DNA of 64,000 nucleotides from assembly GCF_003334255.1 (NCBI RefSeq), contig NZ_QOWU01000005.1; one strand, 5' to 3'. Under the pieces are notes generated by a model. That model had not been told where the DNA came from. It saw only the letters and a program-made list of their open reading frames with translations, and did not search any database. This document shows positions 13,048-23,509 of the stretch, piece after piece. Position numbers and translations under genes: made by a program. Position 1 is the first letter of the stretch, and the number at the start of each line of letters is the position of its first letter. This DNA is from Escherichia coli. Lineage in GTDB: Bacteria; Pseudomonadota; Gammaproteobacteria; Enterobacterales; Enterobacteriaceae.

Positions 13048-13216
13048 TCTAGGGCAGGGAAAGATCACGTGGTGCTGCTTTTTTGTACTAAACAATTTGC
13101 ATTTTATGTTCAATAATTGAGACATTCCTTATTACCTAAAACTGTTTTTCATTGCTTATACATGAGCAAATACTCCTTACATAATTAAGGAGAACAAAAT
13201 TGAACTTAAAAAATTG

Positions 13217-13684
13217 ATGGAACATATTTCTATTATCCTCGATTATAGACAAGCTAGGAAAGTGAAACATAAATTGTTTGATATTCTACTGTTGACTATT
13301 TGCGCACTTATTTCTGGTGCAGAAGGCTGAAAAGATATAGATGGTTTTTGGGAAACGCATCTTGATTTTTTTAACAATATCGTGATTTTGAAAATGGTAT
13401 TCCTATTCACTATACCATTGCCAGAGTTGTATCCTGTATCAGTTCTACAAAATTTCATGAGTGTTTTATTAACTGGATGCGTGATTGTCATTCTTAAGAT
13501 GATAAAGACGTCATTGCAATTGATGGAAAAACGCTCCGGCATTCTTATGACAAGAGTCGTCGCAGGAGAGCGATTCATGTCATTGGTGCATTCTCAACTA
13601 TGCACAGTCTGGTCATCGGACAGATCAAGACGGATGAACAGAAACTACCTAGCGTCAGTCCTTGCGGGGAGCGGGCTTTCGTAA
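13217..13684 (+). pseudogene. Degraded H-repeat (ISAs1-family) transposase remnant
   Basis: Translation gives [35 protein letters not shown] then a TGA where GWEDIE is expected; later frames give [73 protein letters not shown] and the C-terminal [16 protein letters not shown]. About 470 bp versus about 1.1 kb for an intact element. Confidence 0.7.
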
Positions 13685-13758
13685 TCTTGCCTGTAGCGTT
13701 ATTTGTTTTCGAGAATAAATATATAATACTCCATGTGGATATTTAGTTAAAAGAGGAT

Positions 13759-15024
13759 GTGGTGAAAACAGATTTGACTGTATTTAAGAATATTATATCG
13801 CTATTTAGCATTCGTTTTGCTGGCTACATAATACCTTTAATCACGTTGCCGTATCTTGTCAAGGTACTTCAACCTGTTGGATTTGGATATTTATCATTTG
13901 GTATTGCTGTTTTACAATATTGTACGCTAGTTGTTAATTATGGGTTTGATCTTTCAGCAACAAGAAAAATTGCACAGAATAGAGAAAATGTGCATTACAT
14001 CAGCGATATTTTTTGGAATATTCTTTTTTTGCGGTTGTTTATTTCTCTTGTAGGTTTTTTAGTATTAGTGGTTTTTATCCATTTATTTCCTGATTTGTAT
14101 CGAATTAAATGGATTTTGCTTTGGGGGTATTTGTCTGTTTTGGGGACAGCTCTCTTTCCAATGTGGTTATTTCAGGGGAAAGAACAGCTTGGACGAATAT
14201 CAGCAGCTCGTATATTTTTACAGATTTCTTGCGTACCTTTATTTTTTGTTTTTGTAAAAAACACTCAAGATGATTGGGTCGCATCACTAATATATGCTCT
14301 ACCGCAGTTGTTAATATCAGTAGTGGCAGTATATATCATTCATAAAAGGAAGTGGATTGTATTAAAAAAAATAAAACTTGCAACAATCAAGAAAGAATTA
14401 ATAGATGGTTGGCATCTTTTTATATCTACGGCAGCAATTAGTCTCTATACAACAACCATTACTGTAGTCTTAGGGATTGTATCAGGTCCCTATAGTGTTG
14501 CCATATATACTTCTGCAAATAAAATATTACAGGCGGCTCAGGGGCTTTATCAACCAATATCCTCTGCATTTTACCCGCGAATAAATAACCTGATGAAAGA
14601 AAATAAACAATTAGCATTTAAAACTATAAGAAAACTATTTAAAATACAGTTTGTTATTACTATTTGCATAAGCGTTGGGTTGTTTTTGTTTTCTAATATT
14701 GTTGTTGATATTTTATACGGTGATGATTATCGAAATGCGGCATTAATTCTTCAGCTATTATCACCTATTCCTATAGTTGTGGGATGTAGTAACATTTTTG
14801 GAATACAAATATTATTAACATGTGGTTATAAAAAGGAGTTTTCCACTATTTTACTGATCTCAGGGCTTATTAATATGATTTTGATATTTCCTCTTTGCTA
14901 TAAGTTTAACGAGTTTGGAGCAGCATTTTCTGTTTTAATTACAGAGATATTTGTTACTGTTTCTATGCTGTTTGTGGTTATTCTGAAAAAAATACCGGTT
15001 TGGGAGAGTAAGCGTAATGTATGA
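13759..15024 (+). CDS. wzx: O-antigen flippase (Wzx, polysaccharide biosynthesis/MOP family)
   Basis: 421-aa strongly hydrophobic multi-TM ORF, first gene after JUMPstart; AT-rich codon usage; non-ATG (GTG) start inferred. Confidence 0.75.
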   Translation: MVKTDLTVFKNIISLFSIRFAGYIIPLITLPYLVKVLQPVGFGYLSFGIAVLQYCTLVVNYGFDLSATRKIAQNRENVHYISDIFWNILFLRLFISLVGFLVLVVFIHLFPDLYRIKWILLWGYLSVLGTALFPMWLFQGKEQLGRISAARIFLQISCVPLFFVFVKNTQDDWVASLIYALPQLLISVVAVYIIHKRKWIVLKKIKLATIKKELIDGWHLFISTAAISLYTTTITVVLGIVSGPYSVAIYTSANKILQAAQGLYQPISSAFYPRINNLMKENKQLAFKTIRKLFKIQFVITICISVGLFLFSNIVVDILYGDDYRNAALILQLLSPIPIVVGCSNIFGIQILLTCGYKKEFSTILLISGLINMILIFPLCYKFNEFGAAFSVLITEIFVTVSMLFVVILKKIPVWESKRNV

Positions 15025-21491: not shown

Positions 21492-22447
21492 GTAGTGTAT
21501 CTGTATGCATTGTGACTTTTAATCGTAAAAATGACCTGTTGAGATGTCTAGATAATGTTCTTAAACAGTCACACGTTGTCAGTAATATCCTTATATATGA
21601 TAATGCATCTACTGATGGGACCACTCGGTTTCTGCTTAGTAAATATTGCGCTATATTATCTCCATCAAATATTCCTCAAAAGATTGCAACCCTAAATGAC
21701 ATAAATATCTGGCTTGTTACAGCGACAGAGAACTCTGGAGGTGCTGGCGGGTTTCATTATTCTGTAAAATTATCTCGTGAAATATTCGATACTGATTATT
21801 ATTGGTTAATGGATGACGATGGTTACCCTTCTAAAGATTGTTTAAATATTCTTATGCAATATGCAGAGACGCATAATTCTGATTATGTTATGCCTGTTAG
21901 TATAGATATTGATAATAATGAACAGCTATCTTGGCCAACACGAAAAAAAAACCATGCAAAAACTGAATGTTATAAGGAATTATATGAGTCGTGGGGAGAT
22001 GTTATGGATTATGTTACACCTTTTAATGGTTCTCTCTTAAGTAAAAAATGTATTGATAGTGTTGGGTATGTGAATAAAGATTTTTTTATTTGGGGGGATG
22101 AGTATGAACATTACTGGAGATGCAAAAAAGCAGGAATTCATCCTGTAACAATTATGAATGCAAAATTCTATCACCCGTCACAAAAGTTACCTCTTCAGCC
22201 ATGTTTTTTTGGATTGATTAAATTACCCTATGTCGATTCTCCATTACGTATGGTATGCCTAGTTCGAAATTATACATATATTTATAAAAAATATGACTCA
22301 AAATTAAAAATAATTCTCAAGCTTATATCTTATAGTTGGTTTTTCTTAATAACAAGAAAGCTTGATGTTAAAGGTTTTGTCTTATACTTAAAAAGTGTTC
22401 TTGATGGATTAAGAAATGATTTTACAAGACATAGAGATTTTTTATAA
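21488..22447 (+). CDS. Glycosyltransferase, family GT2 (candidate galactofuranosyl- or rhamnosyltransferase-like)
   Basis: 319-aa ORF: VCIVTFNRKNDLLRCLDNVLKQS...NSGGAGGF...WLMDDD; paralogue of the next gene. Confidence 0.7.
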   Translation: MSSVSVCIVTFNRKNDLLRCLDNVLKQSHVVSNILIYDNASTDGTTRFLLSKYCAILSPSNIPQKIATLNDINIWLVTATENSGGAGGFHYSVKLSREIFDTDYYWLMDDDGYPSKDCLNILMQYAETHNSDYVMPVSIDIDNNEQLSWPTRKKNHAKTECYKELYESWGDVMDYVTPFNGSLLSKKCIDSVGYVNKDFFIWGDEYEHYWRCKKAGIHPVTIMNAKFYHPSQKLPLQPCFFGLIKLPYVDSPLRMVCLVRNYTYIYKKYDSKLKIILKLISYSWFFLITRKLDVKGFVLYLKSVLDGLRNDFTRHRDFL

Positions 22448-22554
22448 TACAGGTTGATACATTTCATAAAAACATAATGATAATGGATAATCAATTTGCA
22501 TCTTAATTATTTTTACTACCTTCCCTGCTCGATAAATATGTTTATAGGGTTAAT

Positions 22555-23457
22555 ATGACTGTTATTGCTATAGTTGTAACATTTAATCGCTGTGCGCTTT
22601 TGAAAAAAGTTTTGCATTCGTTGCTTTCTCAATCAATTGCATTAAATAAAATAATAATCATTGATAATGATAGTAATGATGATACAGCTAAAGTCGTGCA
22701 TGATTTTTCTGAAGTGGATGATATTTTTTATTATTATAACACAGGAGATAATCTGGGAGGGGCTGGAGGGTTTTATCAGGGGTTTAAAATCGCAGAGCAG
22801 TTTTATTATGACTATCTTTGGTTAATGGATGATGACCTTCTACCTGAGCCTGATTGCCTAGAGAAATTAATCCAAGATAGGCCAGAAGGAATTGTTCAGC
22901 CGGTAAGATACGATCTTGATGGTGCTTGTGCTGAAATATCACCTGTTGAGTATAATCTTCAAAAAATATTTTGCAGGAATCCTAAAACCAAAACAGTAAA
23001 AGAAGTGATTTCAACAGTTATTTCTGATAATTGTCGGGAAATCGATATTGCAGGTGTTCCTTTTGAAGGTCCTTTAATTTCAAAGTCGGTAGTTAATAAA
23101 GTGGGGTATCCAAATCCTGATTTTTTTATTTTTAATGATGATCTTGATTATTCGTTAAGGACGAGAAGTAAAGGTTTCTCTATAAAGTGTATAGTCGACG
23201 CCAGGGCTACAAGGCTTTTAAAAAATAATCAAAAAAATGATTTGAAAAGCTGGAAAGGATATTTCATGTTGAGAAATCATTATTATATCCTACGAAACTA
23301 TGGTGAAAATAAGCTCGTTAAGAATCGAGTCTATCTCATCATGTTTTATTATTTTTTGAAGTCAGTTTTTTCTTTTGATTATAAGTTCGCAAAAGTGGTT
23401 ATTTTTTCTTTTAAAGATTCATTTTCGCTTAAAAATAGCAAAAGATTTCGACCATAG
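22555..23457 (+). CDS. Glycosyltransferase, family GT2 (paralogue of upstream gene)
   Basis: 300-aa ORF: IAIVVTFNRCALLKKVLHSLLSQS...NLGGAGGF...WLMDDD; shares motif order with the 21488..22447 product. Confidence 0.7.
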   Translation: MTVIAIVVTFNRCALLKKVLHSLLSQSIALNKIIIIDNDSNDDTAKVVHDFSEVDDIFYYYNTGDNLGGAGGFYQGFKIAEQFYYDYLWLMDDDLLPEPDCLEKLIQDRPEGIVQPVRYDLDGACAEISPVEYNLQKIFCRNPKTKTVKEVISTVISDNCREIDIAGVPFEGPLISKSVVNKVGYPNPDFFIFNDDLDYSLRTRSKGFSIKCIVDARATRLLKNNQKNDLKSWKGYFMLRNHYYILRNYGENKLVKNRVYLIMFYYFLKSVFSFDYKFAKVVIFSFKDSFSLKNSKRFRP

Positions 23458-23509
23458 TTTTTATTTTTGGATAAACGCTGTTATCACAACTGATCGGAGT
23501 AATTCTTAA

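Follow-up and report, generated by a model that had tools for sequence, protein, structure and literature searches.

The O167 O-Antigen Cluster of an Escherichia coli Genome and Its Putative Alanine Ligase WfdG

The O-antigen locus described here lies on a stretch of Escherichia coli DNA of 64,000 nt (contig NZ_QOWU01000005.1 of assembly GCF_003334255.1), which is referred to in its entirety as the window. The locus is an interval of nine genes (13759-23457), all on the plus strand, between galF and gnd, and it is the already described O-antigen locus of E. coli O167 and Shigella boydii, which typing tools recognize. The conserved 5′ flank, galF (11857-12750, plus strand), is identified by TIGR01105 (689 bits, with a cut-off of 659) and by RefSeq, and the conserved 3′ flank, gnd (23510-24916, plus strand), scores 767 bits with TIGR00873, over the curated cut-off. 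Averaged over 1 kb, the GC content passes from about 0.53 (8-10.5 kb) through 0.48 at galF to 0.27-0.34 across 13.5-23.5 kb, and returns to 0.49-0.50 at gnd. The nine cluster genes jointly have 30.7% GC (0.307; single genes, 0.28-0.33) vs. 51.1% (0.511) elsewhere in the window, confirming the AT-rich block that a first-pass annotation of this DNA had noted between the two flanking genes.

The cluster is preceded by a JUMPstart element of 39 bases (13009-13047, plus strand), overlooked in the first pass together with the transposase remnant described below, which is evident on direct reading of the sequence and matches Rfam RF01707 with 60 bits (gathering score, 35). An exact ops motif, GGCGGTAG, resides within it at 13036-13043, and this ops-bearing JUMPstart, judged from its sequence, is the element of the 5′ operon leader at which RfaH is loaded. 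Two more exact copies of the ops 8-mer occur in the window, at 1164-1171 on the plus strand and at 54017-54024 on the minus strand, neither of them inside a JUMPstart match; three exact matches per window are not beyond chance, as 11 of 100 shuffles reach three. Downstream of the JUMPstart lies a decayed transposase remnant of the ISAs1/ISEc1 (H-repeat) type (13199-13641, plus strand), which RefSeq records as a pseudogene with a frameshift, an internal stop, and a missing C-terminus. Thousands of genomes carry ISEc1 transposase genes that align with the remnant in two pieces at 91-92% DNA identity, and this accounts for the thousands of partial matches obtained when genomes are searched with the block. 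The O-antigen block had been placed at 13100-23460; this holds from 13759 onward, whereas 13100-13758 is occupied by the insertion sequence (IS) relic and does not belong to the O-antigen genes. From the positions of the JUMPstart and the relic, the operon leader is about 700 bases long and crosses the relic ahead of wzx.

The nine genes are arranged in the order wzx, glf, GT4, ATP-grasp, GT2, wzy, GT4, GT2, GT2, where GT2 and GT4 denote glycosyltransferase families. The open reading frame (ORF) list, RefSeq, and the family scans agree on this order, and they match all the gene families and ORF positions listed in the first pass. All ORFs of the galF-gnd interval are accounted for by the ORF list and the family scans, which contain no ABC-transporter-like (wzm/wzt) ORF in the interval; the same two sources and RefSeq show no rml or man genes there, so the reported absence of rmlBDAC and manCB also stands. 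The wzx gene (13759-15024, plus strand) encodes the O167-family O-unit flippase, with an exact match to B5L3U8_SHIBO and a weak match to the Wzx_EPS family, and wzy (19150-20400, plus strand) encodes the O167 O-antigen polymerase of CAZy family GT129, with an exact match to B5L3W2_ECOLX. No Pfam match was obtained for Wzy, as is usual for this protein. The O-antigen chain-length regulator gene wzzB lies farther downstream (27826-28803, plus strand; NF012015, 606 bits; RefSeq), so that wzx, wzy, and wzzB of the Wzx/Wzy pathway are all found in the window. CAZy places the O167 Wzy reference ACD37046.1 in GT129 and classes that family as inverting, and a beta linkage between the repeat units is therefore predicted.

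The assignment to O167, a question that the first pass had left open, is carried by identity at both the DNA and the protein level. In a search of 5426 complete genomes, all 10361 of 10361 bases of the block matched E. coli strains 214-4 and 23AR1101 at a rounded 100.0%, and exact comparison of the galF-gnd interval with that of strain 214-4 revealed 5 SNPs. A third genome, NZ_CP062824.1 (strain Res13-Lact-PER13-34), carries a cluster that is 99.6% identical, and RefSeq labels wzx and wzy as “O167 family” in all three carriers. Exact sequence look-up showed that the window Wzy is UniProt B5L3W2_ECOLX, the O167 reference, that the window Wzx is B5L3U8_SHIBO, an “O167 family O-antigen flippase”, and that the ATP-grasp protein is the deposited “WfdG [Shigella boydii]” (B5L3W0); the protein clusters of Wzx and Wzy are both named “O167 family”. 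In locus, gene order, and sequence, the cluster thus agrees with the E. coli O167/S. boydii reference, and the pairing of the E. coli reference allele of Wzy with the S. boydii reference allele of Wzx is trivial allelic variation. The S. boydii type that shares the O167 antigen is presumably type 3. Strain 214-4 is an enterotoxigenic E. coli (ETEC) strain used for volunteer challenge, with O167 serology (PMC7558491), and O167 has been reported to be antigenically related to a S. boydii O antigen (PMC8454413). The RefSeq annotation and the exact matches of Wzx and Wzy to deposited O167/S. boydii sequences establish that the galF-gnd interval holds an O-antigen cluster, as had been proposed. The cluster received its sequence and its name years ago, and it is of little consequence for discovery.

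The distribution of the cluster supports its lateral acquisition, which had been suspected from its composition. Segment-by-segment BLAST comparison with a strain of sequence type 182 (ST182) showed 99.62% identity in the cluster and 94.2-97.3% in the wca genes, galF, gnd, ugd, and wzzB, a pattern expected of recent transfer between lineages by recombination in the flanks. The cluster is also rare, being found in only 3 of the 5426 complete genomes, and the IS relic between the JUMPstart and wzx is present in all three; a relic at this junction fits a history of lateral movement. A module of the same nine genes in identical order, with 30% GC, resides in a chromosome of Edwardsiella tarda of 57-59% GC (GCA_053891975.1, 6440-20858), outside a galF-gnd context. 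Amino-acid identity between this module and the window ranges from 48 to 76% (Glf, 76%; WfdG, 68%; the two 3′ GT2 enzymes, 64-66%), and it is lowest, at about 48%, for Wzy and the second GT4 enzyme, so that details of linkage or acceptor may differ; at this divergence, synonymous sites are saturated. The E. tarda module is followed by a galU/galF-like gene, an epimerase gene, ugd, and a second epimerase gene related to that of the window (68% DNA identity). A third version of the cluster, with the same order and 53-79% amino-acid identity, was found on an enterobacterial contig (Logan SRR31243282, 1175-9631) that also encodes a GalF with 90% identity to its E. coli counterpart; this version is without wzy, and 59 bases lie between GT2 and GT4 in its place. 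Taken together, the low GC content, the high identity of the cluster relative to its flanks, its rarity, and the E. tarda module support a low-GC mobile module that is exchanged via recombination in the flanks.

The precursors of the O unit are predicted from genes within and just downstream of the cluster. The glf gene (15017-16105, plus strand) encodes UDP-galactopyranose mutase, which makes UDP-galactofuranose (UDP-Galf). The protein matches TIGR00031 with 465.2 bits over residues 1-361, that is, at full length and above the curated cut-off of 303.75, and it matches PDB entry 1I8T with 620 bits over residues 1-362; glf is therefore intact, as assumed when galactofuranose was first predicted for this O unit. 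We take 1I8T to be the Glf of E. coli K-12, whose O16 rfb cluster likewise occupies the galF-gnd locus, uses the Wzx/Wzy pathway, and encodes a closely related Glf. The O16 cluster has rmlBDAC and is not known to have an ATP-grasp gene, whereas the window cluster has no rml genes. Downstream of gnd, ugd (25165-26331, plus strand; NF011631, 798 bits vs. 757) encodes UDP-glucose 6-dehydrogenase and supplies UDP-glucuronic acid (UDP-GlcA), and an accessory gene for an NAD-dependent epimerase of the short-chain dehydrogenase/reductase (SDR) family (26397-27401, minus strand) lies between ugd and wzzB.

This epimerase, which is present in 293 of the 5426 complete genomes as a single copy in each, is classified through its PDB relatives, as no NCBIfam equivalog cut-off is reached. 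Its best match is 5U4Q (636 bits, near-identical), a structural-genomics entry deposited as “dTDP-glucose 4,6-dehydratase”, and it is followed by the 6ZL6/6ZLA family (3e-43) and by MoeE5 (6KV9). These next relatives are UDP-GlcA 4-epimerases, and on this resemblance the protein is a probable UDP-glucuronate 4-epimerase that would convert UDP-GlcA to UDP-galacturonic acid (UDP-GalA). The deposited name of 5U4Q looks wrong in light of the next-best relatives and the genomic context. In E. tarda, too, ugd and a related epimerase gene come after the cluster, which supports a functional link between these genes and the cluster. Galacturonic acid in the O unit, as had been suggested from the downstream epimerase, is reasonable: a uronic acid fits ugd, the epimerase, and the published amide-linked L-alanine discussed below. 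The O167 structure of Linnerborg et al., dating from 1997, is said to be consistent with galacturonic acid.

The remaining gene, wfdG (17340-18194, plus strand), which the first pass had listed as ATP-grasp-like without a role, encodes a TupA-like ATP-grasp protein of 284 residues that matches PF14305 almost end to end (7.2e-42, model positions 1-240 of 241). The identical protein has been deposited not only as “WfdG [Shigella boydii]” but also as “ATP-dependent carboxylate-amine ligase”. A sequence search of WfdG against the PDB returned no significant match, and a comparison of folds was therefore needed. The AlphaFold model, built with 25 homologues, has a pLDDT of 91.8 and a pTM of 0.90, and nearly every one of its 50 best matches in the PDB is a carboxylate ligase of the ATP-grasp type (probability 1.00, TM 0.35-0.47), the best neighbours being ArgX/LysX, D-Ala-D-Ala ligase (Ddl), RimK, and L-amino-acid ligases. 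The neighbours in the AlphaFold database (AFDB) at a TM of at least 0.9 are TupA-like proteins, several of them fused to GT4 or O-antigen-ligase-like domains. Across 26 WfdG homologues, 52 columns are invariant, including K39, K58, K99, N107, E140, E153, K168, D240, and E252; these may include ATP/Mg-binding residues. At the DNA level, a sensitive blastn search of the complete genomes for relatives of wfdG matched only the three genomes with the O167 cluster, a result that does not extend to protein-level relatives in other amidated serogroups such as O91 and O110. A search of the open literature with wfdG and the names of the neighbouring genes found nothing relevant.

In the databases, WfdG often appears with 244 residues instead of 284, in entries from more than 120 contigs. 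A truncation of wfdG in ST182, where the gene is annotated 40 codons shorter, was considered and ruled out, since the coding sequence is unbroken and specifies the same protein; the 244-residue form in the ST182 genome that was checked reflects the choice of start codon by the annotation pipeline and not a mutation.

The published chemistry of O167 suggests what WfdG may do. A review of E. coli O antigens describes the O167 antigen as bearing amide-linked L-alanine (PMC7685785), and a paper on polysaccharides decorated with amino acids gives the O167 structure as one example where it discusses amide bonds between amino acids and uronic acids (PMC4663550). Cj1438C, the C-terminal TupA-like domain of the HS:2 capsule enzyme Cj1438 of Campylobacter jejuni, has been shown to amidate the C6 carboxylate of GlcA with ATP once this sugar has joined the chain, and only the amidated uronic acid serves as an acceptor for the transferase that follows (PMC11800379). 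Given the L-alanine amide of O167 and the precedent of Cj1438C in the same family, WfdG most likely joins L-alanine to the C6 carboxylate of the uronic acid in the O167 unit, and by the same analogy it probably acts at the lipid-linked stage, after the uronic acid has been transferred.

The Campylobacter system and the window cluster share some features and differ in others. Cj1438 and WfdG have, by annotation, the TupA-like ATP-grasp family or fold in common; both loci handle a uronic acid and a furanose sugar, and in both, two similar GT2 enzymes adjoin the amidoligase. Cj1438C, in contrast, is one domain of a multidomain protein of 776 residues, whereas WfdG is a stand-alone protein of 284 residues, and Cj1438C attaches serinol phosphate or ethanolamine phosphate to GlcA, whereas the presumed amine of WfdG is L-alanine. 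The former also belongs to a capsule locus of the ABC-transporter type and the latter to a Wzx/Wzy O-antigen cluster.

An alternative is that WfdG works before transfer, on the nucleotide sugar, to make UDP-GalA-6-N-alanine, or that it attaches an amine other than L-alanine. Nothing in the sequence fixes the acceptor, and WfdG relatives of about 50% identity occur in many polysaccharide loci of Firmicutes and Bacteroidota, where the amine may be another one; moreover, for other amidated uronic acids such as UDP-GalA6N, the review proposes routes at the nucleotide level (PMC7685785). This alternative is nevertheless unlikely, as Cj1438C, the only characterized member of the family cited here, modifies the sugar once it has been transferred, and the subsequent transferase depends on the amide. 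The frequent fusion of TupA-like domains to glycosyltransferase or O-antigen-ligase-like domains also suggests action on growing glycans. As for the amine, L-alanine is the sole non-sugar, non-acetyl substituent reported for O167 in the review's account (PMC7685785), and wfdG is the only gene of the cluster that falls outside the glycosyltransferase, processing, and precursor classes. The ligation of L-alanine to the lipid-linked uronic acid is therefore preferred in what follows.

The cluster contains five glycosyltransferase genes. The first (16138-17340, plus strand) encodes a retaining GT4 enzyme, identified by GT4-type NCBIfam matches and named “glycosyltransferase family 4 protein” by RefSeq, with an EX7E motif (EGMSMFAVE) that is invariant in the three diverged clusters. 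The second (18194-19102, plus strand; RefSeq places the start at 18194 in some genomes and at 18242 in others) encodes an inverting GT2 enzyme that resembles EpsE (2e-33) and TuaG (9e-19) in NCBIfam, and its DXD motif (MDADD) is likewise invariant in the three clusters. The third (20400-21491, plus strand) encodes a retaining GT4 enzyme that is PglJ/WaaB-like (NCBIfam PglJ, 3e-33; LPS 1,6-galactosyltransferase, 2e-25), with a conserved EX7E motif (EGFSLVLLE). The last two genes encode GT2 enzymes for which GlfT1 is the top NCBIfam family. The upstream one (21488-22447, plus strand; 134.8 bits, 3.5e-39) has an LMDDD motif that is invariant in the three clusters and no match in the PDB by sequence; the downstream one (22555-23457, plus strand; 79.5 bits) has its best PDB sequence matches with the galactofuranosyltransferases 9DTP and 4FIX, ahead of chondroitin synthase, which is matched twice and more weakly. 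Although GlfT1 is the top family for both, both scores lie under the curated cut-off of 330, and the two enzymes are thus termed GlfT1-like rather than GlfT1 and regarded, from family matches, as candidate galactofuranosyltransferases. They had been described as paralogues, and this is upheld, but the relationship is only distant (32% identity over 236 residues).

The number of glycosyltransferases raises a question of its own. For O167, the Liu 2019 review lists one glycosyltransferase beyond the number expected, without explanation (PMC7685785). Five genes with one extra imply a unit of five sugars, which accords with the penta- or hexasaccharide that had been proposed. The surplus would be accounted for if one of the five genes were a non-functional leftover: the same review counts O167 as one of the clusters in which a single surplus glycosyltransferase has no evident reason, and the decayed IS at the 5′ end marks a locus with a history of rearrangement. 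This is improbable, however, since all five ORFs are intact in the window, on the Logan SRR31243282 contig, and in E. tarda, with the same order and 48-66% amino-acid identity, and neither the EX7E signatures of the two GT4 enzymes nor the DXD signatures of the three GT2 enzymes vary among the three versions. At this level of divergence, an unselected gene would be expected to have lost its reading frame in one or more of the three lineages.

A functional role for the extra enzyme can be proposed by analogy with Campylobacter, where two GT2 enzymes carry out the same furanosyl transfer onto an amidated uronic acid, for reasons that the authors describe as unclear (PMC11800379). This precedent, which is a lead only, is the basis for the tentative suggestion that the extra O167 glycosyltransferase is functional and tied either to the amidation step or to a sixth residue, alongside alanine ligation by WfdG; the suggestion is possible, and less probable than not. 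The two GlfT1-like enzymes may be specialized for alanine-amidated and free uronic-acid acceptors, or they may be redundant, like Cj1434 and Cj1438. Alternatively, the O unit may contain a sixth, sub-stoichiometric residue that was missed in the 1997 structure.

The whole is best explained by a Wzx/Wzy-dependent O167 O-antigen operon, an explanation held with high confidence. Transcription proceeds from upstream of the JUMPstart/ops leader, through the dead ISAs1 remnant, and into the nine genes; the subsequent steps of biosynthesis are proposed. The wecA gene sits in the enterobacterial common antigen locus, outside the window. WecA is expected to start the unit with GlcNAc, as no gnu gene lies upstream of galF, where the ORF list and RefSeq show wcaM instead, and the review's rule on gnu (PMC7685785) then predicts initiation of this kind, namely the transfer of GlcNAc-P to undecaprenyl phosphate. 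Ugd and the epimerase would provide UDP-GalA, and Glf would provide UDP-Galf, from which one or both of the GlfT1-like GT2 enzymes may transfer beta-Galf, while the GT4 enzymes would add alpha-linked pyranoses, the uronic acid among them. With the consumption of ATP, WfdG would activate the C6 carboxylate of the uronic acid as an acyl phosphate and couple it to the amino group of L-alanine, and, by analogy with Cj1438C, this amidation would take place on the lipid-linked intermediate after transfer of the uronic acid rather than on the nucleotide sugar. Wzx would then flip the unit, Wzy would polymerize it with inversion to give the beta linkage, and WzzB would set the chain length.

No evidence contradicts the identification as O167, and the weak points all lie among the inferred steps. 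Several considerations weigh against the scheme as drawn. The substrate of WfdG and the timing of its action are deduced from family and analogy, wfdG being absent from the open literature, and the presence of alanine on GalA and of Galf is drawn from indirect text, from the genes, and from what is reported of the structure by Linnerborg et al. The epimerase falls under all equivalog cut-offs and is near-identical to an entry deposited under a different activity, and both GlfT1 matches are far below the curated threshold. Finally, the extra glycosyltransferase leaves a scheme of one enzyme for one linkage incomplete.

The weakest alternative, that the serogroup is O169 instead of O167, draws on the organism name of NZ_CP062824.1, “Escherichia coli O169:H41”, and can be dismissed with near certainty, because RefSeq calls wzx and wzy “O167 family” in that same record, the window Wzy is the exact O167 reference protein, the O169 reference Wzy (BAQ01860.1, GT122) differs from the O167 reference (ACD37046.1, GT129) in protein and in CAZy family, and the O169 unit, as described in the review (PMC7685785), has side branches of Glc and GlcA and shares its cluster with O183, with neither an amino acid nor glf being mentioned. 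The label itself is explained by the inclusion of an O167:H41 clade within ST182, the O169:H41 lineage (PMC8454413). The organism name of NZ_CP062824.1 is probably mistaken, as its strain likely belongs to the O167:H41 clade of ST182.

Several other features of the window lie outside the O-antigen locus. Upstream, an ORF of the colanic-acid cluster (3058-4491) is overlapped at its start by an algC RNA motif (Rfam; 3067-3116), and two matches to the Rfam family naRNA4, which is derived from repetitive extragenic palindromic (REP) elements, occur at 2910-2980 and 7601-7671. Downstream, Rfam identifies the histidine operon leader (35979-36102) and the small RNA (sRNA) STnc240 (38841-38915). Beyond dacD and sbcB, a further set of ORFs may constitute an accessory island. 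No NCBIfam family matches those at 45533-46591, 49381-50304, and 50395-51237, and 52709-57074 on the minus strand contains three co-directional ORFs, the last of which encodes a CrfC-like (dynamin-like, clamp-binding) protein of 798 residues that scores 556 bits against a cut-off of 1146.

The window is typable as O167, a serogroup that includes ETEC strains (among them the challenge strain 214-4), enteroinvasive E. coli (EIEC), and S. boydii, and the O169:H41 label on at least one RefSeq genome with the O167 cluster can mislead those who type strains by organism name. The conserved extra glycosyltransferase poses a small, well-defined question, and WfdG offers a clean single-domain candidate for studying the attachment of amino acids to the uronic acids of O antigens. 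If the extra glycosyltransferase does function alongside alanine ligation by WfdG, this would be the first demonstration of a stand-alone TupA-like enzyme that couples a proteinogenic amino acid to a lipid-linked O unit.

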